DNA of 32,000 bases from contig NZ_MPKA01000052.1 in the NCBI RefSeq assembly GCF_001945605.1, positions 1,452 to 33,451 on the forward strand, written 5' to 3'. Positions 1 to 12,384 of this stretch are shown piece after piece (position 1 is the stretch's first letter; every line of letters begins with the position of its first letter). Source of the stretch: Dubosiella newyorkensis (GTDB taxonomy: Bacteria; Bacillota_I; Bacilli_A; Erysipelotrichales; Erysipelotrichaceae). The notes under the pieces were generated by a model that searched no databases, was not told where the DNA came from, and worked only from the letters and a program-made list of their open reading frames with translations. The position numbers were made by a program, and so were the translations under genes.

Positions 1-673
1 AAAAAGCTCAATAGAGTCCATGGTGTTTGGTTGGTTTTGGTGGATGTATTGACTGGTCGAGTGCTTTCTCCTGTGGATGTGTTTGGTCGATTGCTTCCTT
101 CTTCGACTGCGAACTGCATTTGCAGATCGGCTAGCGTGGATTGATAATCGTTGCCTTGGGTTTCTCCGTCTAGAGATACGCGCAATTCGATCTTTCCTTC
201 TTGGCTTTTTTGCAGCGTGTCTAGATAAAACCATTGTTCCATCGATTGATCGACGCCATGTAAGCCTTCGTTGTTTTGCGTACGATCTTCACCACCGACA
301 GATTCAGAATCAAAGAGAGTTTGGACTCGTCCATTCACGCCTGTATACGTGAGCTTGTAGGTATAGGCGCCTCCTTGAGCGACGTTGACCGAGTCTTCTA
401 ATGAGCTTAAGATTTTATGAGACATATACCATTCGGTGGATTTGTTGTTTTGATTGTCCAGCTTGATTTGGAGGATAGCTTCGTCGCCTGGCTGCATTTG
501 ATAGATCGTATCGTCGATCGAACCGGTCGTAAAATTGCTTTCCATCTTTTCGTTTTTTGTGAATGTCACTTTCCAATCGTTTCCTCCAGGAATCGTTTGG
601 GCAAAGGCAGGTTGGAAAAGAGCGCTCAATCCAAGCAAGGAAGCTAAAGAATATTTTATGAGTGTTTTATGCA
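1..673 (-). CDS. Secreted protein with TasA/camelysin-like terminal strand motif. The 5' end is complete and the 3' end runs off the window (at least 224 aa).
   Basis: Absent from the ORF track because there is no stop in the window. The reverse-strand ATG at 673-671 is preceded by GAAAGGAAGG. Translation begins MHKTLIKYSLASLLGLSALFQPAFA/QTIPGG, a classical signal peptide with an AFA site, and the frame stays open to position 1. The segment GNDYQSTLADLQMQFAVEE resembles the final strand of TasA/camelysin-family proteins. The gene follows the previous stop (690) by 16 nt. Confidence 0.6.
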
Positions 674-689
674 TCGTTTTCCTTCCTTT

Positions 690-1460
690 CTAATTGCGCG
701 ACAAGGTCGTTCCATTGACTGCGATTTGTTTTCCCCATGAAGAATGGATCGCTTCGGCTGCGTTGTGTTCTTGGATCGCATCGACTTTGGCTTCGACACA
801 AAACTTTAATTTATCGTAAGTATAGTAGGATGTTGTGACTTTTTTTCCGTCTTCGATGGTTTCAACGACTTTTTTGTGTTCTTGCAGCTTGCCGTCGATC
901 TTGATCGAGTCGATGAGTGGTGTTGTTTTCTTTCCGACTTCAAGCAAGTTTTTGTAGTAATAGACGGCTCGTTCGGCTGTGTCTTCGTCGATTTGGAACC
1001 AATCGTCTTTATTGACATAGTTGAGTTCGATCAAGTCTGGATCGAGAGTCGTGACTTTTTGGTCGTTTTCATCGAGCCAATATTTTGTGATCGTGACGCG
1101 AACGAATTCTGGGATCTGTCCTGAATTTTGAACTTCGAGCACGGTTGGATAGCGTTTTCCAAGTTTGATATTTTCTTCCACATCACTGAAAAGTAGGCCG
1201 GTGTTTTGAATATCGTTGGCGTTGTTGTTTTCGTTCCAGTTTCCTTCGGATTGATAGTCGCGGCTCGAAATGACTTTATCGTTTTCTAACAAACTTACAC
1301 CAATTTGAGTGAGTTGGAGTCTTGAGTTGTAGGTTGGCGAAAAGTATGTGAGCGCGGCTTTTGTTGTTCCGATGCCGGATTGGATGAGCAAGACGGCTGC
1401 CAATACAAGTAGTGTGATCGTCGTTGCGGGTTTGGATAGAAAATCTTTGATGTGTTTCAT
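690..1460 (-). CDS. Secreted TasA/camelysin-like protein with a SipW-type (YF-S/T) signal-peptide junction, 256 aa
   Basis: ORF track entry. SD GAGGAGGAAG lies upstream. The N-terminal TM segment ends in TTKAALTYFSP. The motifs EFVRVTITKYW and KVDAIQEHNAAEAIHSSWG are as I recall them for clostridial TasA-like families. The ATGA start/stop overlaps the upstream gene at 1457-1460. Confidence 0.7.
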   Translation of the reverse strand: MKHIKDFLSKPATTITLLVLAAVLLIQSGIGTTKAALTYFSPTYNSRLQLTQIGVSLLENDKVISSRDYQSEGNWNENNNANDIQNTGLLFSDVEENIKLGKRYPTVLEVQNSGQIPEFVRVTITKYWLDENDQKVTTLDPDLIELNYVNKDDWFQIDEDTAERAVYYYKNLLEVGKKTTPLIDSIKIDGKLQEHKKVVETIEDGKKVTTSYYTYDKLKFCVEAKVDAIQEHNAAEAIHSSWGKQIAVNGTTLSRN

Positions 1461-1969
1461 GATCTTCCTCCTCTTTCGATTTGTATCGCTTTGCCCCAGT
1501 TTGGCGAAAGGGCGTTGCCGTCTTCGTCAAATTCTACGGGTACCGATTCTGAAAGCACGACGACGTTGAATTCGGTTGGCGTGTTTTCTTGATCGGGTTC
1601 GATCTTGATCAACAAAGGGTTTGTGGATGTGTTTTGTTCTGTTAAATAGGTGTTGTAATAGTAATATCCATCATTTCCTTGGCTCCAGCCTTGGGATGGT
1701 GTGTAGGTCAATGTCGTGTTTGTTGGCGCGATCGCTAGTACACGGACATAGACGGGTTGGGAGCCTTCTTCTAGAGTGACTGTCACGCTTTTTTGGAGTG
1801 GTCCTGGAATCTCTTCTTCAATTTTGGTTTCATGGCTTAAGTTGATTTCTTTGACGCCTCTTCCTGCTACGTAGGTTGTAAAGTAGGCGTAGGCTTGTGG
1901 GAGCGTAAAGAAAAGGATGCCGCATAATGCGAGGCAGGATAGTATCAAATTCCACGTTCTTTTCATCAT
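1457..1969 (-). CDS. Small secreted TasA/camelysin-like protein with an AYAYFTT SipW-type signal junction, 170 aa
   Basis: ORF track entry. SD GAGGAGG lies upstream. The signal peptide reads LALCGILFFTLPQAYA/YFTTYVAG. The start is ATGATGA and overlaps the stop of the upstream gene at 1966-1968. A second in-frame ATG at 1966 is an alternative start. Confidence 0.7.
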   Translation of the reverse strand: MMKRTWNLILSCLALCGILFFTLPQAYAYFTTYVAGRGVKEINLSHETKIEEEIPGPLQKSVTVTLEEGSQPVYVRVLAIAPTNTTLTYTPSQGWSQGNDGYYYYNTYLTEQNTSTNPLLIKIEPDQENTPTEFNVVVLSESVPVEFDEDGNALSPNWGKAIQIERGGRS

Positions 1970-2982
1970 TGTCCTCCTCGGTCTTGTTCTAAGTCGTTGC
2001 CGTTGTTGGTGTACTGGTTTTTGATCGAGCTTCCGTGATGGTCGGTATTGTTCGAGTCGTTTTTAAACGAGACGGCACTGATTTCATCTCCGATTTGGGC
2101 GATCGTTCCCGTTTGGAGTTTTTCTTCGGTTGGAATGTACGAGGCGCCCGAATAGATTTCTGTGACTTCTACGTACGATCCGACAGGAATGCAATCAAGG
2201 ATTTCGATCGTGTCGTTTCCGGAAGCGTTCATTACGATCGTTTCTACGTTTGAGTAGACGAGTTCACTTTTGGTTTCATCGGTGTAGGCGTCGATTTTAT
2301 AGACGAAGGTGGCGGGTCCGTTGCCGTCGTGTCGTTCGAGTGTTTTGTGGATGCGGAGTGATCCGTTTCGAAGTTCTTGTTCGACTTTGAGCGTGATGGT
2401 CGTATCGTATTTCCAGTCGGTTGGGTTGGCGGTCGAGATTACGTCATCCACTTTTTCTTTGGTTGGCAAGGAAAAGAGGATGGGTGTGTATAAATATTCA
2501 TACTTCCCGGATTGGGAGATGGTGATCGTTTCTCCGCGCATGTTCTTTTTGGAATACGTTTCTAGATCGCTTCCTCTTGGTACGGCTAGATAGAGTCCGG
2601 ATTCGATCGTTTCTTTCTCGTTCAGTCGTGTTTGGGTGATTGGTTGGATCGATTGTTCGAGAATGAGGTCGAGCGCGTCGGAGGCGATACGAGTGTATTT
2701 GGTTTCGTCAAGTGTTTCTAAGTTTTCAAACTCGGAGGCGAGTGGTGAAAATTCTTCGTTGATCGAGAAGGAGTAGGTGTCATAGTTTGGATCGGGCACG
2801 ATACTTCCTATCTTGTATAGGTCGATCTGTAAAGATGAGTTTTTGATGTCTTCATCGCCGGCATGGACAAATTCTACTGAGCATGGCACGCCGGTGTCGA
2901 TGGCGAGTGTTTTTTGATGAAAACTAAAGCCGGCTATGAGGATGGAAGCAACGGCTAGGATCCATAGCTTTTTCTTTTTCAT
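1966..2982 (-). CDS. Secreted pilin-like (CnaB/SpaA-fold-like) protein that lacks an LPXTG sorting signal, 338 aa
   Basis: The ORF track begins at a GTG (3000). An ATG at 2982 with SD GGAAAGGA 8 nt upstream gives MKKKKLWILAVASILIAGFSF, a typical signal peptide. The C-terminal half (GSLRIHKTL..FVYKIDAY..VEVTEIYSGASY) looks like a CnaB-type pilin domain with an E-box-like segment. The C-terminus ..DLEQDRGGQ has no LPXTG or TM tail. Confidence 0.7.
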   Translation of the reverse strand: MKKKKLWILAVASILIAGFSFHQKTLAIDTGVPCSVEFVHAGDEDIKNSSLQIDLYKIGSIVPDPNYDTYSFSINEEFSPLASEFENLETLDETKYTRIASDALDLILEQSIQPITQTRLNEKETIESGLYLAVPRGSDLETYSKKNMRGETITISQSGKYEYLYTPILFSLPTKEKVDDVISTANPTDWKYDTTITLKVEQELRNGSLRIHKTLERHDGNGPATFVYKIDAYTDETKSELVYSNVETIVMNASGNDTIEILDCIPVGSYVEVTEIYSGASYIPTEEKLQTGTIAQIGDEISAVSFKNDSNNTDHHGSSIKNQYTNNGNDLEQDRGGQ

Positions 2983-3004
2983 AATCTTTTTCCTTTCCAC
3001 TTTT

Positions 3005-3826
3005 CTATTTCTTAAAACGATCTTTCAAGAAGATCCATCCAACGAGGAAGAAGAGGATCGTTCCTGCGATAACGATGGCTACAAGATTTCGGTCGAACAA
3101 GGAGGCGTCTTGGCTTCCATCCCCTTCGAGGGCGTTTGGAACCCGATGACCTCGCACAAGCAAACGATGGGAATTGATTCCATAGGGTGTACAGGTCACG
3201 AGTGTCATTAAATCTTGGCCTGGAACGATTTCAAGGTCGGATGTTTCTTCCGGAAGCACAGTGCGGATCTGATCGACTTCATAGGTCAATGTTTTTCCTA
3301 ATACGCGAACCGTAAATGTGTCGCCTTCGACGAGCTTGGTAATGTCGGTAAACAGGCGGGCACTTGGTAGTCCTCGATGTCCAGATATGACGGCATGGGT
3401 GCTTTCTCCTCCAACAGGAAGCGAGCTTCCTTCAATGTGGCCCACATTTTTTTGGAGCAGGTCTTCATCTGTTCCATGAAAAATAGGCAAATTGATATTC
3501 GCTTTTGGGATGTTGACCGATCCCATCAATCCATCGTCGTTCACGTTCAATGTTTTTTCATAAAGTTCATGCATTTCTTCGGAAGGAAAGTAGCGATTCT
3601 TTTCTTCCAGAAGCAGTTGGTTGTATTTGACGGCGTCGGCATACATCAGTTCAAGATCTTCTTCTTGAAGCTTAGCGACCGCTTCGTCGTATGTCGCGAC
3701 AGCACGGGCCGCATACATTTCATTCCACCAATTGGCGATTGTAGGATACAACAGCAAGGACAGGCCTACCGTGAAAGCCACAATCAGCAGAATTGTCGTA
3801 AAATTCTTTTGTATGTATTTTTTCAT
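3005..3826 (-). CDS. srtC: Class C (pilus-polymerising) sortase
   Basis: Catalytic TLVTCTP (TLxTC) motif, His in AVISGHRG and Arg in LLVRGHR. It has an N-terminal signal anchor and a C-terminal TM helix (LVAIVIAGTILFFLVGWIF), as in class C sortases. SD AAGGAG lies 9 nt upstream. Confidence 0.9.
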   Translation of the reverse strand: MKKYIQKNFTTILLIVAFTVGLSLLLYPTIANWWNEMYAARAVATYDEAVAKLQEEDLELMYADAVKYNQLLLEEKNRYFPSEEMHELYEKTLNVNDDGLMGSVNIPKANINLPIFHGTDEDLLQKNVGHIEGSSLPVGGESTHAVISGHRGLPSARLFTDITKLVEGDTFTVRVLGKTLTYEVDQIRTVLPEETSDLEIVPGQDLMTLVTCTPYGINSHRLLVRGHRVPNALEGDGSQDASLFDRNLVAIVIAGTILFFLVGWIFLKDRFKK

Positions 3827-3852
3827 GTAGGACTCTCCTTACCATTGCGGCA

Positions 3853-3881
3853 AGAGAAAGAGCAGTAAAAGCTCTTCTCTC
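3853..3881 (-). promoter_or_regulatory. Intercistronic stem-loop between the major pilin and sortase genes, with no U-tract
   Basis: Arms AGAGAAAGAGC (3853-3863) and GCTCTTCTCT (3871-3880) pair with one bulge. The hairpin lies in the 97-nt gap after the pilin stop and is not followed by a T-run on the minus strand. Confidence 0.3.
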
Positions 3882-3923
3882 TAACAATGGCTAATCAACT
3901 TTAAACAAAATCTTTTTAAGATC

Positions 3924-5585
3924 TTATCCTTCGTTGCTCATTCTTTTTTTCGTGATCAACAAGATCGCAGAACCTACTAGGAGCACTCCACCGATCACGT
4001 AGAGCATTGTGGTTCCCATGCCACCAGTTTCAGGGAGGGTAGTTCCTTTGGTGTTTAAGATGTTTCCGGTAACAACACCTGTATTTGTATCCCCGGTTCC
4101 ACTTGTACCATCGACAGTCATAGTTAAATCAGTAACACTACTTCCATCATGATCTGCAGTGATTTTTATTTCAAATGGATTTGCTGGAGTATTGTATCCA
4201 GTTGGTGCAACAACCTCATATAACTTATAATCACCAGCATCTAAACCAATAATGCTAAATGTTCCATCTTTCGCAGACTTAATATTTCCTTCCTTTGGAA
4301 GACTCTCTTTTTTTCCATCCCATTTTGTCCACATAGTAATCTTGCCATTAGTTACTAAGGCATATTCATTATTGTTTCTAGTAATGATAAATTCAGCACC
4401 TTCTAATTTTTCGGTTGTTAAAGCTCCATCCACTTTAGTCCCATTTAATGTAAAGTTATATACATAAACCGTTTTTTCTGTTGTTTCCCCATCTCCACCA
4501 GTATTTGGATTATTAGAATATTCTAGCTTTACTTTATTGTTTTCTTGGAAAGCAGCACTACTATTTAAAGTCGCTGTATATTCAATAACAATAAAATCAC
4601 CTGCTGTAATATATCGTTTAGAGGAACCATATGGAGTAGTTTTTAAATCTGGTAAATTTACTGAAAAGCTTCCTCCGCCATTATCCAATGTTTCATCAGT
4701 TAAAGTATAATGGTTACTACCAATCAAATTGGTTTTTACCAACCCTTCCTCATCGTATGTTAAAACACCGTTAACTTCTTTTGCAGACACGCTATATACT
4801 TTTATATCATCATTAAATGATAATCCGTTAGATAAAGTATCTATAAAATTAAACTTATATGTATCATAATGAGTCATATCTGGAACTTGAGCAGATAGTC
4901 TAAATGTAATGCTATCTCCAATACTATAGTCAGCTGAATTACCAAAACCTTGACTCTTTCCATTTTCTTTATCCTCGACTTCTTTGGTTACATCAACATC
5001 TTCTGTTTTAGGTTTAATCGTAATATCACCTACTACTTGAAGAACTGCTGGGTTTACAGAACCCGTAGTAGTCTCATCAACGATCAAGTAATATCCATCT
5101 TGAACAAGTGCAGAATATTCACCATTTTCGGGTTTCAACACTGTTTTATCAACGTTATCAGGAATCTTTTTATCTTCAGCATCATTATCTGCTAATACAT
5201 CATAGATAACCTTTGCTAACTTAATTCCTTGGTCATCGGTAAAACCATCAAGTGCTTTAGCAACTTCTTTTGCTTCTGATGTAGTTTTAAGTTTTTTAAC
5301 AGCATCAACATCTGTGAAGTTATTTTTAAGACTATTAATCAATGTTGTTTCTGCCTGTGCACTTGTAATTGCGTCACCCCAAGTTACATCAGCTAAAACT
5401 TCATCAGGAGTATCTCCTGATTTTGTTCCTTTAAAAATTTGATAAGCAGTAAATGTACGCCCAGACAAATTAGTTTTTCCTGTTTCAGTTTCGACTGTAA
5501 CCTTCGCTGCCGAAACAGAAGTCGTTAATGCAAAAGCCATCGCTAATGCAACAACACTTCCAAACAATTTTTTAATCATTTTCAT
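3924..5585 (-). CDS. LPXTG-anchored major (backbone) pilin, SpaA/RrgB-like, 553 aa
   Basis: Signal peptide ..LTTSVSA/AKV. Pilin-motif lysine context DITIKPKTEDVDVTKE. E-box YKLYEVVAPTGY. Sorting signal LPETGG (4020-4037) followed by a hydrophobic helix and a KKR tail. SD AAAGGA lies upstream. Confidence 0.85.
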   Translation of the reverse strand: MKMIKKLFGSVVALAMAFALTTSVSAAKVTVETETGKTNLSGRTFTAYQIFKGTKSGDTPDEVLADVTWGDAITSAQAETTLINSLKNNFTDVDAVKKLKTTSEAKEVAKALDGFTDDQGIKLAKVIYDVLADNDAEDKKIPDNVDKTVLKPENGEYSALVQDGYYLIVDETTTGSVNPAVLQVVGDITIKPKTEDVDVTKEVEDKENGKSQGFGNSADYSIGDSITFRLSAQVPDMTHYDTYKFNFIDTLSNGLSFNDDIKVYSVSAKEVNGVLTYDEEGLVKTNLIGSNHYTLTDETLDNGGGSFSVNLPDLKTTPYGSSKRYITAGDFIVIEYTATLNSSAAFQENNKVKLEYSNNPNTGGDGETTEKTVYVYNFTLNGTKVDGALTTEKLEGAEFIITRNNNEYALVTNGKITMWTKWDGKKESLPKEGNIKSAKDGTFSIIGLDAGDYKLYEVVAPTGYNTPANPFEIKITADHDGSSVTDLTMTVDGTSGTGDTNTGVVTGNILNTKGTTLPETGGMGTTMLYVIGGVLLVGSAILLITKKRMSNEG

Positions 5586-5688
5586 GAATTTATTCCTTTC
5601 TTTAATTTCTCAAAAAACATGAGTTTATAACTTTCTTGTTATAATCCCTTTCATAAAGTTAAATAAATGAACTCTCTATTCTATTCCC

Positions 5689-8600
5689 TTATTTTTTCTT
5701 CTTGCTCCACCATCCCTTCTTTCGAAGTATTACCACATAGCCAGAAGTAGCGATCACGCTAATTCCACTGGCCATGATTGGTGGCTCAATGCCAATACCT
5801 CCCGTTTCTGGGAGCGCAAAATACTTGTTATTAAACACCTTTACATAATGACTTAAACTCGAACCGCTTTTTATAGTACCAATAATTGTGTATGTACCAT
5901 TTTCCGGTTTTTTTTCTGGTTCTTTTATGTCACAAGCACTACCTGTACTCAAACAAGATGAAACAAAAGTTAAGTCTTTCTCGTTTGAATTTATATTTTC
6001 AGTGATTTTATAATGAGAATTAATCGGCAAATATTTGATGATAGCATACTGATTGTTCTTCAATAAAATTTTTCCTCTACTATGGAATGTAACATTTGAA
6101 CGTTTCTCATCAATTATGTCATTTCCGTTTGAAGATTTAGTATAAACAGTCAAAGCATATTCATTTGCTAATTCATTGCCATTCTGATCACTCAACACTA
6201 TTTCGAATTCATAATCTTTATCTGGATCAGGATCGTTTGACTGCTTTTCTAAACGAAGTTCTCCAGTTGCATTTTCAGGAGTTTTAGAAACTACATTTGG
6301 CAATGTATATTCCATATAACAAGAAGACCCCGCTTGACCACGTTCTAAATAATAAACTGTTAAAGTATGCTTACCAGATGATAAATTGTCTCCTAATGCT
6401 TGTCGTATATCTACTTCAGCGCCAATTGATTGATGGACACCTCCAATGTCACAAATCAACTGATCATCTAAGAATACCCACATATCGTCATCTCCATAGA
6501 AGAAATAACGTAAAGGTCCTGTATAGTTTTCATCTAAGATAAAATCAACTTGGTATTTCATACCAAATAAAGTGTTATGATCTTGATCATCATCACTTTT
6601 ATAGGTTCCATTAAAACCATAAGTATTACCGTTATACTTTAATTGAGGTTGATTGTTTGGGGATCCATAATTTTTGGTCGTATCTAAATTATCTAAAGGC
6701 CAAAATCCATTATAATGAAATCTGTTTTTTTGTTGTCCTGCAGGGGTGTAAGCATCCTTTGTTAAAAATTGATTTAACGTGTCTTTATTGTAGTTATTTG
6801 GTCCTGAAACACCATAAAGTGAATAGGTGTCTCCGGTCCTATCGAATTTTAAAGAACCGTCTAATCTAACGGATTTCCCTATTGCTGTTCCTTCATCAAA
6901 CAATTTAGGTGCATTTACTGCATATTGAAGATGTCCGTCAGAATCTAAAGCGCTATTTACTAATCCAAATATTGGGTGAGATCGAACAGCTCTGTGCACA
7001 TCTATTGTTTTTGTATTGTTATTATTATCTTTTACAGTTTGAGTGGTAATGAATTCTAAATTTCCTGCCGACTGATTAATACTCTTATCGTTCTTGTTTA
7101 CATTTACTTGTGGATCATTGCTATAAAATTTTTCAGAAATATATTTATTTCCTAAAACTAAAGTTGGAGCATTTGTTGATGAATAATTTTTTTCATTATT
7201 AATCCCCACCCTACCATTATTATGGGTATAAATATTCAGATTAGTATCATAAAAATCATAATCCCAAAAAGACGTCTTTTCTGTAGCTTTGGATTCGGTT
7301 TCATTAAATACCAACCGAATTTCTGTTCCTTCTGTTATCAGATAATATTTCCCTTCAAAATCATTAGGTTGTAGAGGATCATATAAATCTTTGTGTTGAT
7401 CTGAATTTGTAAACCGAATATTTTTAGCTAAATCATTTGAATTGTAATTAAATTTAGACCAATTCGATTGTTCATTTGGTTTTATCCATATTTCTTTTAA
7501 ACAATACGATTCTACACCATCCAATTTATTAAAATAATCTAAGCTAGGAGCTTGATGAAATTTATACTTAGTCGACGAATAAATTTCTTCTGGTTCCTTA
7601 CCTAATTTTTTATTAAATTTTCCCTGAACATTTTTATAATCTTTATATTTAACAAATCCAGGGGCAAATTTCTCAGGAATTTTTGTCATATCTATAACTT
7701 GGAAAGTTGCATTTTGTCTTGCTGTTTTACCTTGATTCAAATCTTCATAAGTAGCTTCTTGGTTTTTATGGAGATATCCATAAATTTCTACTTCAAACTC
7801 AGGGTTAGGCGTTATTTGAATATTAAGAACCATAGGATCCGATGCATTTTGACTAAAAACTATAGGGGTATTAGTATAATTTTTGTTAATTAAAATACTA
7901 TCATTAGCCGTTTCCGCATCAATCAAATCTGTTTCTACCGTTTTGTTGATGTTCATTATAGAAACGCTAGCTCCTACTTCCGCCTCTGGCTTGACATCCT
8001 CCAGATCCTTCGTAGTATCATACTTCTCCACAAAAGCTTGAGTAGGTGTTAGCTCCGCATCAAACTTCTGATCCTCCAAATTGATCTCTTGGTCTTCCAC
8101 AAAGAATCTAAGCTTGTAGAATGACAAATCAAGCAACTGTTCAGGATCCGTATCCTTTTCGCTTTGTTCTTTTAGCTTTTGGATTTCGAGTTGATCTTCT
8201 TCATTTTGTGTTGTTTCATCGATCTTCTCGATTTGAAGTGTAGGAATTGGTTTATTTTCCTCTTCCTCTTGTTCTTGTTTCGCTTCTTCTTGGATCTGTT
8301 CCAATTCATCTTCGGAACGATTGATTTCTTCATCGATCTTGTCTTGGATGTTTTCTTCTGGTTCTAAGCTGAACTTTTTGATTTGGAGTTCGTTGTCTGT
8401 CGTTTTTTCTGTTTCTTCTTGTTCTTTGTTTTCTTCTTCTAGTTGTTTATTTTCTTCTTTTTGTTCTTCTTCTTGCTCGCCAGGAATCGATCTAGGCTTT
8501 AGAGTGAGCGTGAAGTCTTCTGTTTCTACTTTGAACTCTTCTGGAAGGCGATATTCGATCTCTTCTTTTGTTTCTTCGTTTTTGTCTTCTTTTTCTTCTT

Positions 8601-9669
8601 CTGCTGGTTCTTCTTTTCCATCTTCTACTACTGGATCTTGTTCTGTCGGTTGTTTTTCATCCTCTACTTCTTGAACTTCTTGTTCTGGATGCACATAGGC
8701 CATCGTTTCATACTCTTTTTCTTGAAGAACGATTTCCTTTACTTGATCATTCAAATCGCCCACGATGGCTTTATTCTTGTCTTGATTCACAAGAAAACCA
8801 ACATAACTCTTAATTTCTTTGTCAGGAACATTTTCATCCTTTTGATCTTTGAAGAAGATCAAATCTCCATTTTGTGGTTCATATCCTTCTGGTTCAAACA
8901 ACTCTTTCTTCGAAAGATCTTCGATCCATTCGTTCCAGTCGTGTCCATATGGAATTTGTTCATTCTTGATTCCCGCATAATGAAGGACGAATGAAGCGAA
9001 CATGATATTCCAGTCTTCGTATGGCTTTCCATACCATTCTCCATACCGCGTGTAATAGTGTTCTTTCCCATCAGAATCGAGTTCGAAGTTTTCTTTTACT
9101 TCCTTATAGTCTTTTTGACTCTTCGCAATCTGGACGATCTTTTCATCCAGCTTGTCGCTCAACGTTTCCGGAATCGAGTTTTCCCAATCTTCCTTCTTTT
9201 CTTTCAATTCTTTATTGGAAGTACATTCTTTCGAATGGGTGTGTTCTTCTTTTCCGCAAACAGGATCGACACTCAAATAACATTTTGGAGAATGTTCATG
9301 TCCTTCTACGCTTTCGCTCTCTTCTTTATCGCAAATCAATACTTGTTCTTGCTGGAAACACGACTCGTCATGAACATGCTCTTCACTTTCTTCCAAAGGA
9401 CAAATGAGCGTTTGTTTGATTTCATAACACGAATCGTCGTGAACATGACCTTCGATCGATTCTCCTTCTACTTTTCCGCAAAGCGGATCTTTAGAATGAT
9501 AACAATCTTCTGTGTGCGTATGCTCTTCCTTATCGCAATAGAATTGCTGGGCTTCCGTTTCCAAAGTCAATGCCGGAAGGATCAGCGCATACGTTGTACA
9601 AAAGACGATCAAACAACTTAGCGCGTTCGTCACCCGTCTCCAAGAACGTTTTTTTCTCTTTCTATCCAT
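5689..9669 (-). CDS. Large LPXTG surface adhesin and probable pilus tip protein, 1326 aa. Domains in order: Cys/His repeat region, CHAP-like domain, acidic spacer, fibro-slime/PA14-like domain, CnaB-like domain.
   Basis: N-terminal signal anchor. Five C..H-x-H-x3-C(Y/F) units (9223-9537). CHAP/NlpC-P60-like segment YGEWYGKPYEDWNIMFASFVLHYAGI..GDLIFF..SYVGFLV..IVGDLND (8689-9147). E/Q/K-rich spacer (8140-8688). Fibro-slime signature GFWPLD..FFYGDDDMWVFLDDQLICDIGGVH..LTVYYLERGQAGSS (6300-6711). LPETGG at 5797-5814 followed by a TM helix and KK tail. Confidence 0.85.
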   Translation of the reverse strand: MDRKRKKRSWRRVTNALSCLIVFCTTYALILPALTLETEAQQFYCDKEEHTHTEDCYHSKDPLCGKVEGESIEGHVHDDSCYEIKQTLICPLEESEEHVHDESCFQQEQVLICDKEESESVEGHEHSPKCYLSVDPVCGKEEHTHSKECTSNKELKEKKEDWENSIPETLSDKLDEKIVQIAKSQKDYKEVKENFELDSDGKEHYYTRYGEWYGKPYEDWNIMFASFVLHYAGIKNEQIPYGHDWNEWIEDLSKKELFEPEGYEPQNGDLIFFKDQKDENVPDKEIKSYVGFLVNQDKNKAIVGDLNDQVKEIVLQEKEYETMAYVHPEQEVQEVEDEKQPTEQDPVVEDGKEEPAEEEKEDKNEETKEEIEYRLPEEFKVETEDFTLTLKPRSIPGEQEEEQKEENKQLEEENKEQEETEKTTDNELQIKKFSLEPEENIQDKIDEEINRSEDELEQIQEEAKQEQEEEENKPIPTLQIEKIDETTQNEEDQLEIQKLKEQSEKDTDPEQLLDLSFYKLRFFVEDQEINLEDQKFDAELTPTQAFVEKYDTTKDLEDVKPEAEVGASVSIMNINKTVETDLIDAETANDSILINKNYTNTPIVFSQNASDPMVLNIQITPNPEFEVEIYGYLHKNQEATYEDLNQGKTARQNATFQVIDMTKIPEKFAPGFVKYKDYKNVQGKFNKKLGKEPEEIYSSTKYKFHQAPSLDYFNKLDGVESYCLKEIWIKPNEQSNWSKFNYNSNDLAKNIRFTNSDQHKDLYDPLQPNDFEGKYYLITEGTEIRLVFNETESKATEKTSFWDYDFYDTNLNIYTHNNGRVGINNEKNYSSTNAPTLVLGNKYISEKFYSNDPQVNVNKNDKSINQSAGNLEFITTQTVKDNNNNTKTIDVHRAVRSHPIFGLVNSALDSDGHLQYAVNAPKLFDEGTAIGKSVRLDGSLKFDRTGDTYSLYGVSGPNNYNKDTLNQFLTKDAYTPAGQQKNRFHYNGFWPLDNLDTTKNYGSPNNQPQLKYNGNTYGFNGTYKSDDDQDHNTLFGMKYQVDFILDENYTGPLRYFFYGDDDMWVFLDDQLICDIGGVHQSIGAEVDIRQALGDNLSSGKHTLTVYYLERGQAGSSCYMEYTLPNVVSKTPENATGELRLEKQSNDPDPDKDYEFEIVLSDQNGNELANEYALTVYTKSSNGNDIIDEKRSNVTFHSRGKILLKNNQYAIIKYLPINSHYKITENINSNEKDLTFVSSCLSTGSACDIKEPEKKPENGTYTIIGTIKSGSSLSHYVKVFNNKYFALPETGGIGIEPPIMASGISVIATSGYVVILRKKGWWSKKKK

Positions 9670-9684
9670 AATTCCTTCGCCTTT

Positions 9685-10281
9685 CTAAATTCCGCTCAGC
9701 TTATTCAAAGGCCAGACTCGACCTACAAGCTTTCCTACGATCATTTCTTCTGCCACAGGACCGATTGCCTTTACACGAGAATCCATCGAAACGCTTCGAT
9801 GATCTCCCATCACGAACCACCGATCTTCAGGCACTTGATACGGATATTCAATATCCGTCTGTCCGATCGACCTTTCACTCACATAGGGCTCTTCGATCTC
9901 TTCCCCATTCACATACACAACTCCATCATCATCGATGAACACCCAGTCGCCAGGACCCGCGATCACTCGCTTGACAAGAATCTTGTTGTTGTAGTAAAAG
10001 GCGATGATATCCCCCGTCTTATAATTGTTTCCTTTTACAGAAAGAACGACATCGCCCGCCTTGAGCGTAGGTGACATACTATTTCCATAAATCTGTAAAA
10101 CAGGGAGCCATAACGTAGCCACTAAAACCGCGATCGCAGCCACCACCAATAAAGTCCCCACCGTACTTTTCAATGTCCTCACATACTGACTTTTGTGCCG
10201 AACTCGATTTCGTTCTTGAACGAGCTCATCCAGCGAGTACGAGACATCGATCTTGTTTTCTTTGCTTGCTTTCTTTCTCAT
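9685..10281 (-). CDS. Signal peptidase I, bacterial LepB/P-type (S26A), with catalytic Ser/Lys retained
   Basis: Box B NSMSPTL (Ser68), box D LVKRVIAGPGD (Lys104) and box E GDHRSVSMDSR, with a single N-terminal TM helix. SD AGGGGA lies upstream. The start is 56 nt inside the 3' end of the upstream ORF. Confidence 0.9.
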   Translation of the reverse strand: MRKKASKENKIDVSYSLDELVQERNRVRHKSQYVRTLKSTVGTLLVVAAIAVLVATLWLPVLQIYGNSMSPTLKAGDVVLSVKGNNYKTGDIIAFYYNNKILVKRVIAGPGDWVFIDDDGVVYVNGEEIEEPYVSERSIGQTDIEYPYQVPEDRWFVMGDHRSVSMDSRVKAIGPVAEEMIVGKLVGRVWPLNKLSGI

Positions 10282-11209
10282 TCATTCCCCTATATATAAA
10301 TAGACCGTCACTTTCTTCATTTGAGAACTTCACTTCAAAATCATCAATATTCGAACCCGAAACCACGATCTTGAACGGATGCTTTTCTTTATATTCCAGA
10401 TCTTTGCGCGACCATTTGTCATACGCATCCACAAACGAATCATGCAGTAAATGTTCAGCCTGCTTCCGCACAAAGATCGCATCCTCCTTCTTTTCAAACG
10501 CCCCCAAAAAATACCGGACCTTCTGAAAAGAAATTTGAGCGATCCATTTACCCTTCTGCTTTCTTACGCCCGTACAGCCACTCGTGTTGTCTTTACGAAC
10601 TTCTTTGGAACGAAGTGACTCCACACACGTTTGCTCGACATAGTGAAGTGTTTCTTTTGGATCGTGTTCATGAACCAAACAACCACAACTTTTCACATTC
10701 CCAGACTTTAGCTGATTCAACGAAACCTCAATACGATTGCCGCAATCACAAACACACTCCCAAACAACACTTCCCGCCAGTCGTTTTTCTGTCGGACAAA
10801 TCGCCAGCAAACGACCAAACTTTTGATTCGAAATATCTTCAGACTTCTTCCCTTTCGAACAACCGCAACTCGACGTTGGATTGTTCCTTGTCAAATGCGA
10901 AGTAGGAACTTTGATTTCATTTCCACAATCACATCGGCATAGCCACAAATAATTCGAACCCTTTTTTTCATTCAATTTACGAATGACCGTAAGCTTTCCG
11001 ATCTTCTTTCCCGTCAAATCGATCGAAGAAGTTCTCGAACAACCGCAACTATGAACAAGCTCACGCTCGATCTTGTAGCGCTCCAAAAGAATTTCATTTC
11101 CACAATCGCAACGACAAAGCCACAAAAAGCTGCCCTTTCTTTTTTGCTCGGTCTTTTTGAGCACAGTCAGCTTTCCAAAACGTTTACCACTCAAATCAAC
11201 CGCTTTCAT
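10226..11209 (-). CDS. Putative DNA-binding regulator with three tandem CxCxC..SCGC zinc-ribbon-like modules plus an AP2-like domain, 327 aa
   Basis: Three roughly 55-aa repeats of the form (D)L(S/T)GK(R/K)FGKLTV..W.C.CDCGN.I..SCGC. They are followed by TGVRKQKGKWIAQISFQKVRYFLGAFEKKEDAIFVRKQAE, which matches the bacterial/phage AP2 (GV..gKW.A.I..LG.F..eeA) pattern. SD GAAAGGG lies 6 nt upstream. Confidence 0.75.
   Translation of the reverse strand: MKAVDLSGKRFGKLTVLKKTEQKRKGSFLWLCRCDCGNEILLERYKIERELVHSCGCSRTSSIDLTGKKIGKLTVIRKLNEKKGSNYLWLCRCDCGNEIKVPTSHLTRNNPTSSCGCSKGKKSEDISNQKFGRLLAICPTEKRLAGSVVWECVCDCGNRIEVSLNQLKSGNVKSCGCLVHEHDPKETLHYVEQTCVESLRSKEVRKDNTSGCTGVRKQKGKWIAQISFQKVRYFLGAFEKKEDAIFVRKQAEHLLHDSFVDAYDKWSRKDLEYKEKHPFKIVVSGSNIDDFEVKFSNEESDGLFIYRGMNEKESKQRKQDRCLVLAG
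10679..11197 (-). repeat. Three in-frame tandem coding repeats (about 160-190 nt each) inside the AP2-like gene
   Basis: Protein repeats D5-C57, D64-C117 and D125-C177. DNA similarity is also visible, for example TGTGGCTTTGTCGTTGCGATTGTGGAAATGAAAT versus TGTGGCTATGCCGATGTGATTGTGGAAATGAAAT on the coding strand. Confidence 0.7.
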
Positions 11210-11246
11210 TTCTTGCCCTTTCTAAATTGAAATCTTGAAGGTACAA

Positions 11247-11281
11247 AAAAATTCATAAAGTACCTTACTCTATGAATTTTT
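11247..11281. promoter_or_regulatory. 11-bp perfect inverted repeat AAAAATTCATA / TATGAATTTTT in the leader of the AP2-like gene
   Basis: The arms are at 11247-11257 and 11271-11281 with a 13-nt loop containing AGTACCTTACT. The repeat is nested in a second inverted repeat, AAGGTAC (11238-11244) / GTACCTT (11260-11266). The stem is AT-rich, so an operator is more likely than a strong terminator. Confidence 0.35.
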
Positions 11282-11315
11282 GAATATAAATGTTATATAA
11301 TGGTCGATTGTAAAC

Positions 11316-11345
11316 TTGACGGCTTAAACTGACGGCTTATATAAT
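11316..11345 (+). promoter_or_regulatory. Near-consensus sigma-A promoter on the plus strand with no ORF downstream (orphan)
   Basis: TTGACG (11316-11321), an 18-nt spacer and TATAAT (11340-11345); alternatively a 17-nt spacer to ATATAA. The only plus-strand end point before the convergent HAD gene is the bidirectional hairpin at 11618-11643. Confidence 0.45.
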
Positions 11346-11434
11346 AAAATAAAAGAAAGAGAAAACTATAAAAAATCTTGTATCTATAGGCTTTTTCAGC
11401 CTAATGATCTGACCAGAATTTTGACGGCTTAAAC
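11316..11434 (+). repeat. Direct repeats of TTGACGGCTTAAAC: two exact 14-mers plus one adjacent partial copy
   Basis: TTGACGGCTTAAAC occurs at 11316-11329 and again at 11421-11434. The partial copy TGACGGCTTA is at 11330-11339, immediately after the first. Confidence 0.7.
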
Positions 11435-11455
11435 ATTCAAATGGAATCCTGATTT

Positions 11456-11477
11456 GTACTTTTTTCTCAAAAAGTAC
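11456..11477. promoter_or_regulatory. Perfect 9-bp palindrome GTACTTTTT-tctc-AAAAAGTAC
   Basis: The arms are at 11456-11464 and 11469-11477, inside the AT-rich intergenic region. Confidence 0.35.
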
Positions 11478-12249: not shown

Positions 12250-12384
12250 AATCTCATTATGAAGTGTATTGAAAAAAAATCAATCCTTTCTTTCTAACGG
12301 TCAAACGACAAGGCTTCTTTTTTTTGAAGTGCTAAAATAAACGTACAATAAGTAGTGCCAATTCAAATAAAGGAGGTATAAACA

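Follow-up and report, generated by a model that had tools for sequence, protein, structure and literature searches.

Results

Organization of the gene cluster

The window, as we call the whole stretch of DNA analysed here, comprises 32,000 nucleotides of Dubosiella newyorkensis (RefSeq assembly GCF_001945605.1, contig NZ_MPKA01000052.1, positions 1,452 to 33,451). At its beginning lies a gene cluster in which the genes of a sortase-assembled pilus are followed by genes for secreted proteins related to the BsaA/TasA superfamily of fibre proteins. According to the list of open reading frames (ORFs), all cluster genes in positions 1-10281 are on the minus strand and closely spaced, in the order signal peptidase, adhesin, pilin, sortase, F338, F170, F256 and F245. 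From the head of the cluster the features are:

9685-10281, minus strand: signal peptidase I of the bacterial P-type, 198 aa (TIGR02227)
5689-9669, minus strand: tip adhesin, 1326 aa, ending in ...FALPETGG, a transmembrane (TM) segment and a K-rich tail
3924-5585, minus strand: major (backbone) pilin of the SpaH/EbpB type, 553 aa, with the pilin motif ...ITIKPK and a C-terminal ...TLPETGG followed by a TM segment
~3841-3891, minus strand: hairpin without U tract, lying after the stop codon of the pilin gene and ahead of the ribosome-binding site of the sortase gene
3005-3826, minus strand: class C (pilus-polymerising) sortase (SrtC), 273 aa (NF033745)
1966-2982 (ATG start, 338 aa) or 1966-3000 (GTG start, 344 aa), minus strand: pilin-like protein F338
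1457-1969, minus strand: F170, BsaA/TasA-superfamily protein, 170 aa, with a SipW-type junction ...AYA|YFTTY and a predicted beta-sandwich
690-1460, minus strand: F256, relative of the BsaA family, 256 aa, with the junction ...TKA|ALTYFS and a conserved C-terminal VDAIQEHNA
1-674, minus strand: F245, secreted beta-rich protein, first 224 of 245 aa
39-53, minus strand: VNTST segment of F245, aligning with the family motif V-x-T-[G/S]-D

For comparison we searched one genome per species, 185,579 species in all, for relatives of F256. Such a relative is encoded in 445 loci, the best 80 of which were fetched (loci are denoted by L numbers) and their ORFs classified by hidden Markov models built from the first orthologs. 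L004 (GCA_041448535.1) is 100% identical to the window over positions 1-11460 and was used to read past the window edge, where F245 runs off. It provides the full length of F245 and one further operon gene, F324 (324 aa). The ATG start of F338 is that found in L004.

Gaps of 15 nt (9670-9684) and 22 nt (2983-3004) separate the signal peptidase gene from the adhesin gene and the sortase gene from the ATG of F338, respectively, while the coordinates give 4-nt start/stop overlaps at 1966-1969 (F338/F170) and 1457-1460 (F170/F256). The close-packed, single-strand arrangement with these two gaps and two overlaps had been described in an initial annotation made from the DNA letters, and the coordinates agree with it. 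The last gene had been placed at a start of 673 after a 16-nt gap; it starts at 674 and the gap to F256 is 15 nt. The terminator scan places no minus-strand terminator-like site in the intergenic gaps, and such sites occur overall at chance frequency (9 observed versus 9.7±2.8 expected), in line with the earlier remark that no U-tract terminator separates the genes. A weak stem-loop noted at 3853-3881 is indeed real and devoid of a U tract, but it is larger than described and stable: the 97-nt spacer between pilin and sortase genes has a folding energy of -29.5 kcal/mol (z = -3.5). Long, near-perfect hairpins of different sequence occupy the same position in L002, L005, L008, L009 and L014-L017. 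The hairpin is probably an attenuator or stabiliser that sets stoichiometry, and could define the ratio of pilin to sortase. Taken together, the data support a single compact cluster joining sortase-pilus genes to BsaA/TasA-superfamily genes.

The sortase-pilus half

The head peptidase scores 125.7 bits against TIGR02227 (cutoff 47) and matches Peptidase_S26 with E = 2.5e-33, while it reaches only 15.5 bits on the SipW model (cutoff 190). Its catalytic boxes are intact, with the Ser in GNSMSPTL, the Lys in LVKRVIA and box E as GDHRSVSMDSR, and all three are kept in 25 orthologs heading related loci. Given the P-type score and the intact catalytic residues, the enzyme is neither a SipW nor a degenerate SipA/LepA-like protein. 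The sortase matches the class_C_sortase model NF033745 with 273.5 bits (cutoff 160) and Pfam Sortase with E = 7.5e-26.

The backbone pilin is recognised by GramPos_pilinBB (E = 4e-18), SpaA (E = 1e-13) and TIGR04226 (65 bits), and reaches 84 bits on NF033902, under the cutoff of 95. It is homologous to the structurally solved pilins 9uvr, 8wxd, 5xcc and 6ixy (E down to 2e-35), and the Lys of its pilin motif is kept in 66 of 67 orthologs. Ahead of LPETGG, the adhesin matches fibro-slime at aa 1031-1120 and the CnaB-like domain DUF7601 at aa 1140-1230. No sequence relative of it was found in the PDB, and a large LPXTG protein occupies its position in most related loci. A base pilin with its own cell-wall sorting signal is absent from the cluster, the sole extra pilin homolog being F338, which has no such signal. 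By homology these genes encode a conventional sortase-C pilus (tip, backbone and class C sortase), with a catalytically intact peptidase at the head.

The N-terminus of the adhesin (aa 40-160, ~8700-9560) contains at least five repeats rich in Cys and His that read (C)xxEEHTHxxxC or GHVHDDSC, for which metal binding is possible. A long acidic, E/K/Q-rich region of low complexity follows the repeats.

F338 is a pilin homolog without an anchor

F338 combines an ordinary signal peptide with a pilin-like N-domain and a C-terminal domain of the CnaB/DUF5979/DUF7601 type; its orthologs match DUF5979 with E = 1e-9. Comparison with the backbone pilins of the cluster yields an hhalign probability of 92.8%. 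A sorting signal is absent from F338, and no ortholog is flagged with one of the LPXTG type. The gene after the sortase had initially been described as an anchorless pilin-like protein, and both parts of that description hold. A W...LK(P) motif is almost perfectly conserved (W in 78/79 and K in 79/79 orthologs; Lys codon at ~2386-2388) and sits at the domain boundary, as does the motif ...IKPK of the backbone pilin. Each residue of the CnaB K/E/N triad is present in 79/79 orthologs. SLPTK was also considered as the pilin motif of F338 and was ruled out, as its Lys is not conserved and the invariant Lys is that of W...LK(P).

A Cys located ~10 residues past the predicted signal cleavage site (~2872-2883; aa 39-44 of the 344-aa ORF; ...CS(L/V)(T/E)(V/F)) is found in 74 of 79 orthologs. 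The orthologs share no conserved partner Cys.

F170 and F256 are related to the BsaA family

F256 matches the NCBIfam model TIGR04090 (BsaA family, SipW-dependent biofilm matrix protein) with E = 2.3e-6 and 27.5 bits. The same model matches 31 of 38 F256 relatives (best E = 3.7e-10) and 45 of 48 F170 relatives (best E = 5.3e-9). The model for the SipW-cognate signal, TIGR04088, is matched by 4/48 F170 relatives (best E = 2e-4) and by none of the window proteins, and the F170 relative P0173 has been named by the JGI (Joint Genome Institute) as having a "SipW-like signal peptide". F170 shares 95% identity with a protein of D. newyorkensis. Profile comparison identifies F170 and F256 as paralogs (hhalign 97.2%, E = 2.9e-11; 94.5% in a second comparison). 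These matches support a remote homology of both proteins to the BsaA branch of the TasA superfamily.

The signal junctions AYAYFTT and ALTYFSP, pointed out in the initial annotation, are real and near-invariant. Among 80 relatives the F170 family junction reads ...A(W)A|YFTTY.A.G, with Y and F of AYFTTY present in 80/80, and the F256 family junction reads ...G(T/A)RA|ALTY(Y/F)S, with AALTY(F/Y)S kept in 79-80/80. We compared F170 by hhalign with a TasA/CalY profile made of six sequences from Bacillus plasmid genes: AYFTT of F170 aligns with AYFSD of the CalY/TasA junction ...GGGTYA|YFSD. AlphaFold2 (AF2) models of both proteins are beta-sandwiches, with a pLDDT (predicted local distance difference test) of 77.2 for F170 and 82.5 for F256. 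In each model the strand after the signal peptide (residues 24-42 of F170, 32-47 of F256) is unplaced with pLDDT < 50. The donor strand of BsaA is likewise disordered in monomer models (Kivimaki et al., PMC11580942). In the F170 and F256 family alignments, which do not include BsaA itself, the post-signal strands have no conserved Asn.

Single-sequence PDB searches with the four proteins of unknown identity produced no useful match. A similarity of F170 to antibody VH (heavy-chain variable) domains (E = 5e-4) was judged to be compositional or generic to Ig-like folds.

F170, F256 and F245 might instead be ordinary CnaB-type minor pilins, the alternative that the initial annotation itself had set against its reading. 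The CnaB/DUF5979-type domain and K/E/N triad of the neighbouring F338 would fit such a set, and there are very weak Cna_B matches in 4/38 F256 relatives (best E = 0.008). The three proteins themselves give no significant match to CnaB, SpaA or pilin models and Foldseek returns no pilin; moreover, F170 and F256 have no sorting signal and match the BsaA family instead. We consider this alternative largely refuted and highly improbable.

F245 and F324 as putative anchoring proteins

F245 begins with an ordinary signal peptide followed by GGNDWKVTFT..MESNF..G.ID...QPGD (in the family G..W.V.FT...MESNF.T.(L/I)D...QPGD), which parallels GGGTWAAFNDIKSKDATFASGTLDL...KPGD of TasA. The hhalign probability is 27-33% against TasA and 27% against the six-sequence TasA/CalY profile, and Peptidase_M73 is weakly matched by 2/57 F245 relatives (E = 0.007). 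From these similarities F245 appears weakly TasA-like. The C-terminus of the family is more informative and consists of the motif V-x-T-[G/S]-D, a TM segment and a K/R tail. In the alignment of this motif, T is found in 73/73 sequences and D in 64, while the fourth position is occupied by G in 57 and by S in 14. In Eggerthellaceae the motif takes the form LPxTGD, with a canonical LPQTG or LPKTG in the loci L029, L035 and L040. Furthermore, 25/57 relatives match NF053819 (sortase-dependent surface protein), and 12/57 match TIGR03063 (srtB_target, the sortase-B sorting signal) above its cutoff.

F324, which lies outside the window and was read from L004, combines a weakly matching MucBP domain with a stalk rich in Pro and Thr and with a TM segment at the C-terminus. 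F245 and F324 may have an N-terminal domain in common (hhalign 96.5%, with the signal peptides included in the alignment).

About 25 residues before the TM segment F324 carries a conserved acidic motif, (L/I)DLD(D/E)E(D/E)(V/T)P(L/K/T)(A/G)(G/N), with an invariant Pro (L004 ~12270-12300). The distance of ~25 residues rules out its VPLAG-like part as a canonical sorting signal. F245 and F324 are joined in one ORF in the Lachnospiraceae loci L025 (10734-12575), L051 (10789-12750) and L077 (10781-12601), and likewise in ORFs of ~560-650 aa in L024, L034, L059, L080 and L083. In these loci the sorting motif, TM segment and tail of F245 continue in frame into the signal peptide of F324. Whether the genes are truly fused or a stop codon has been lost, the joined frame links the two proteins.

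The cluster is conserved across gut genomes

Across the fetched loci the gene order is near-invariant: P-type signal peptidase (not in all loci), LPXTG tip, LPXTG backbone, SrtC (1-2 copies), F338, F170, F256, F245, F324 and a SipW-type peptidase. Counted over non-redundant loci with enough flank, the genes are found as follows:

Upstream of F256: F338, 75/75 loci
Upstream of F256: F170, 73/75 loci
Upstream of F256, directly upstream of F338: SrtC, 71/75 loci
Upstream of F256: backbone pilin, 61/67 loci
Upstream of F256: head P-type peptidase, 27/37 loci (full 10-kb flank)
Downstream of F256: F324, separate or fused, 68/68 loci
Downstream of F256: SipW-type peptidase, 62/68 loci

The hosts are Lachnospiraceae, Erysipelotrichaceae including Dubosiella, and Eggerthellaceae, and several genomes have two or three copies. 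The tail peptidase, present in the Lachnospiraceae and Eggerthellaceae loci, is of the ER/archaeal (SipW-like) type, with 86-95 bits on TIGR02228 (above cutoff) and 82-87 bits on the SipW model. The junctions of F170 and F256 in the window are unchanged compared with those of lineages with a SipW-type peptidase. In Eggerthellaceae, which belong to a different phylum, the halves are permuted with all genes retained; the metagenome-assembled genomes L029, L035 and L040 have the order module, SipW, P-type signal peptidase, tip, pilin, SrtC. These Actinomycetota copies suggest cross-phylum transfer among gut bacteria, mis-binning being the alternative. One further locus, L051, carries the label Bacteroides, probably through a binning error. 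The synteny across ~80 loci argues for a functional coupling of the pilus and BsaA-like genes.

A minimal form of the cluster occurs in L010, L068 and L078. These loci have no LPXTG pilins, yet SrtC, F338, F170, F256, F245, F324 and SipW are all kept, and from this retention the sortase and F338 belong to the BsaA-like module. After the cluster, L010 (13958-19242) and L078 (13689-18697) contain genes for a transglutaminase-like lipoprotein and genes resembling those of type IV pili and type II secretion systems (T2SSF, T2SSE, small pilin-like proteins).

These minimal loci bear on the possibility that F338, F170, F256, F245 and F324 serve the pilus as accessory factors, i.e. a membrane chaperone, platform or base, and form no second filament. 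Non-pilin accessories of the streptococcal FCT/PI-2 loci (SipA/LepA) can be required for polymerisation, and such a role would be compatible with the lack of a significant TasA fold match, with the C-terminal membrane tethers of F245 and F324 and with the pilin homology of F338. It would not account for minimal loci that keep all five genes without an LPXTG tip or backbone. In addition, both F170 and F256 show similarity to the BsaA fibre family, F170 has the N-terminal motif of CalY/TasA, and a dedicated SipW-type peptidase accompanies the genes in 62/68 loci, as in TasA/BsaA fibre operons. We therefore regard a purely accessory role as improbable.

Apparent exchange of the pilus parts between strains

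The segment 4038-7971 takes in almost the entire pilin gene and, of the adhesin gene, the C-terminal two thirds. By blastn it is without a match in L005 and L007, from a strain that is otherwise ~96% identical to the window and whose flanks align on both sides of the segment. The other strain encodes a 1281-aa adhesin and a 550-aa LPATG pilin. The segment coincides with a stretch of low GC content (0.29-0.35 versus 0.43-0.46), and the sign of the GC skew changes as well. This looks like a cassette replacement or a diversifying exchange of exposed pilus parts.

The two halves could be seen as independent structures that are co-located and co-expressed and have no subunit, enzyme or attachment point in common. 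The exchange of 4038-7971 between strains with ~96% identical flanks agrees with this, as do the GC values of the pilin and adhesin genes (0.29-0.35) compared with the module (0.44-0.46), the two peptidases of most relatives, one per end, and the permutation of the halves as blocks in Eggerthellaceae. Each half also resembles systems that stand alone (Spa/Ebp pili; tapA-sipW-tasA and sipW-bsaA). Full independence is difficult to reconcile with the sortase and F338 staying with the BsaA-like genes in the pilin-less L010, L068 and L078, with the sortase-type signal of F245, with an adjacency that is near-invariant in three families and two phyla, and with the start-to-stop overlaps of F338, F170 and F256 right after the sortase gene. 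Two unconnected structures are possible, although we find this doubtful.

Neighbouring genes and mobile elements

A 327-aa ORF on the minus strand (10226-11209) extends 56 nt into the start of the signal-peptidase gene. It contains three zinc-ribbon-like repeats, GK(R/K)FGKLTV...W.C.CDCGN, and a C-terminal region that may be AP2-like. It matches no family and is found in the closest strains only, not in the loci of other species. IS66 genes directly follow F324 in L004 (12491-14809). In both copies of Erysipelotrichaceae bacterium OPF54 (L011 and L012; 192-2246) a transposase insertion truncates the adhesin gene, and the operon head is lost.

Discussion

Two kinds of fibre genes in one cluster

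We propose that the locus holds most of a conserved, co-inherited surface-fibre cluster of nine genes, which couples the chemistry of a sortase pilus with that of a BsaA/TasA-like filament, and we assign this reading a probability of roughly 55%. By homology, the tip adhesin and backbone pilin are exported, and the class C sortase joins them Thr-to-Lys into a polymer. F170 and F256 would be exported as well and cut at their A-x-A junctions. Their freed N-terminal strands (YFTTY and ALTYFS) could then insert into the beta-sandwich of a neighbouring subunit, as in TasA and BsaA filaments. F245 may serve as the sortase-attached anchor or nucleator of the F170/F256 filament, as a counterpart of LPXTG-BsaB and a functional analogue of TapA, with F324 as a membrane-anchored partner. 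As F245 carries a sortase-type signal, the BsaA-like module would itself need a sortase. F338 is likely to act as a connector between the parts: its Lys would take over a Thr carried by the sortase, with F245 as the donor in the minimal loci and possibly the pilus base in the full ones.

Several observations weigh against this proposal. All TIGR04090 matches remain under the curated 60-bit cutoff, and F170 of the window gives none; since the relatives match consistently yet below cutoff, the relation is one of remote homology to the BsaA family, not of membership. F170 and F256 show no significant hhalign similarity to TasA (1-13%; TasA sequence checked against 8AUR), and the comparison of F170 with the six-sequence TasA/CalY profile (49%) covers the N-terminal third only. 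Pfam has no family for either protein, and relaxed scans find no Peptidase_M73 in them or in 86 relatives. PDB profile searches are without match, and Foldseek of the F170 and F256 AF2 models against the PDB returns generic beta-sandwiches with E values of at least 0.009, TasA being outside the top 50. A SipW-type peptidase is encoded neither in the window nor in L004 or the loci of the Erysipelotrichaceae group. F245 of the window has VNTST instead of xTG and matches no sorting-signal model, which makes it uncertain as a sortase substrate. Finally, donor-strand exchange of F170 and F256 is suggested by analogy, and the physical link between the two fibre types is something that we infer.

The assignments made in the initial annotation are affected accordingly. 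It had considered the last three proteins to be of the TasA/camelysin type. With their TIGR04090 matches F170 and F256 do emerge as remote relatives of BsaA, but a match to TasA is missing from the Peptidase_M73, PDB and Foldseek searches and F245 is weakly TasA-like. The suggestion of a single apparatus gains from the near-invariant synteny in ~80 loci, while a physical union of the fibres stays a proposal. As the locus has no SipW-type gene, the head P-type or a housekeeping peptidase must cleave F170 and F256.

An extension of the proposed coupling is a single hybrid fibre, in which the covalent sortase pilus would be attached to the Lys of F338, with F338 inserted in or capping the non-covalent F170/F256 filament and the whole held by F245 and F324. 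We consider such a fibre unlikely. If it did exist, it would be the first known appendage in which both principal fibre chemistries of Gram-positive bacteria are united; more generally, if both chemistries were physically joined, this would be a new kind of bacterial appendage.

How fibres of the TasA/BsaA type are attached to the Gram-positive cell is unresolved, and the role of TapA is debated. BsaA appears to be membrane-anchored in the studied C. perfringens strain HN13 (PMC11580942). The sortase-sorted F245 family, together with the acceptor-type Lys of F338, provides a testable hypothesis for fibre attachment. The cluster is common in abundant, little-studied gut commensals and often present in multiple copies. 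That tip and backbone genes are exchanged between strains suggests a major host-exposed organelle for adhesion or biofilm formation.

Comparison with known systems

The pilus half corresponds to the Spa/Ebp and streptococcal FCT/PI-2 loci in having an LPXTG tip, an LPXTG backbone with motif Lys and CnaB domain, a class C sortase and a signal-peptidase gene within the cluster. SipA/LepA is a non-catalytic homolog of signal peptidase, whereas the head peptidase described here keeps the catalytic Ser and Lys. Unlike in Spa/Ebp clusters, a base pilin with a sorting signal is missing and the five genes of the BsaA-like module follow the sortase.

With the B. subtilis tapA-sipW-tasA and B. cereus sipW-tasA-calY operons the cluster shares a pair of secreted beta-sandwich paralogs whose junctions are of the A-x-A|(A/Y)F type, and ...A(W)A|YFTTY of F170 resembles ...TYA|YFSD of CalY. 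By this comparison F170 and F256 are likely to divide into a major subunit and an accessory or anchoring one. Relatives of the cluster have an ER/archaeal-type peptidase as in Bacillus, whereas the peptidase of the window is P-type. In contrast to the TasA proteins of Bacillus, F170 and F256 do not match Peptidase_M73 and their hhalign similarity to TasA is not significant. The Bacillus operons are also without sortase, LPXTG or pilin genes, and the B. cereus system is described as sortase-independent (PMC13082335).

Operons that bring BsaA/TasA-family genes together with genes for LPxTG and SpaA proteins, signal peptidases and sortases have been reported, and several BsaA/TasA paralogs can share one operon (PMC11580942). 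Since that work contains neighbourhoods combining BsaA/TasA, sortase, SpaA and LPxTG genes, the initial view that no locus with this combination had been described is out of date in outline. In the literature we found no named pilus type with this gene order and no paper dissecting the architecture. Nor did we find a description of the ten-gene order, the anchorless pilin with its invariant Lys, the TasA-like protein with V-x-T-[G/S]-D, the two peptidases or the lack of a SipW-type gene in Erysipelotrichaceae loci.

The closest described system is the bsa locus of C. perfringens, where srtB lies next to sipW-bsaA-bsaB-bsaC (Obana et al. 2020, PMC7395162; Kivimaki et al. 2024/25 preprint, PMC11580942). 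An LPXTG-bearing BsaB paralog, present beside srtB in the majority of strains, has been proposed as the fibre anchor (PMC11580942). The locus described here differs in several respects. TIGR04090 matches are sub-threshold, the N-E-K isopeptide lock of BsaA is not evident from sequence, and in this lineage the locus lacks a SipW-type peptidase. F338 and the MucBP-like F324 are present, while the VWA protein BsaC is not, and a full SpaA-type set (tip, backbone and class C sortase in the same orientation) is fused to the module. Both loci nevertheless combine several BsaA/TasA-family paralogs and a signal peptidase in one operon with an adjacent sortase gene, and F170 and F256 resemble BsaA in the disordered N-terminal donor strand of their monomer models. 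The type IV pilus-like genes after L010 and L078 recall the type IV pilus-dependent secretion of BsaC in C. perfringens, and F245 would match the LPXTG-bearing BsaB paralog.

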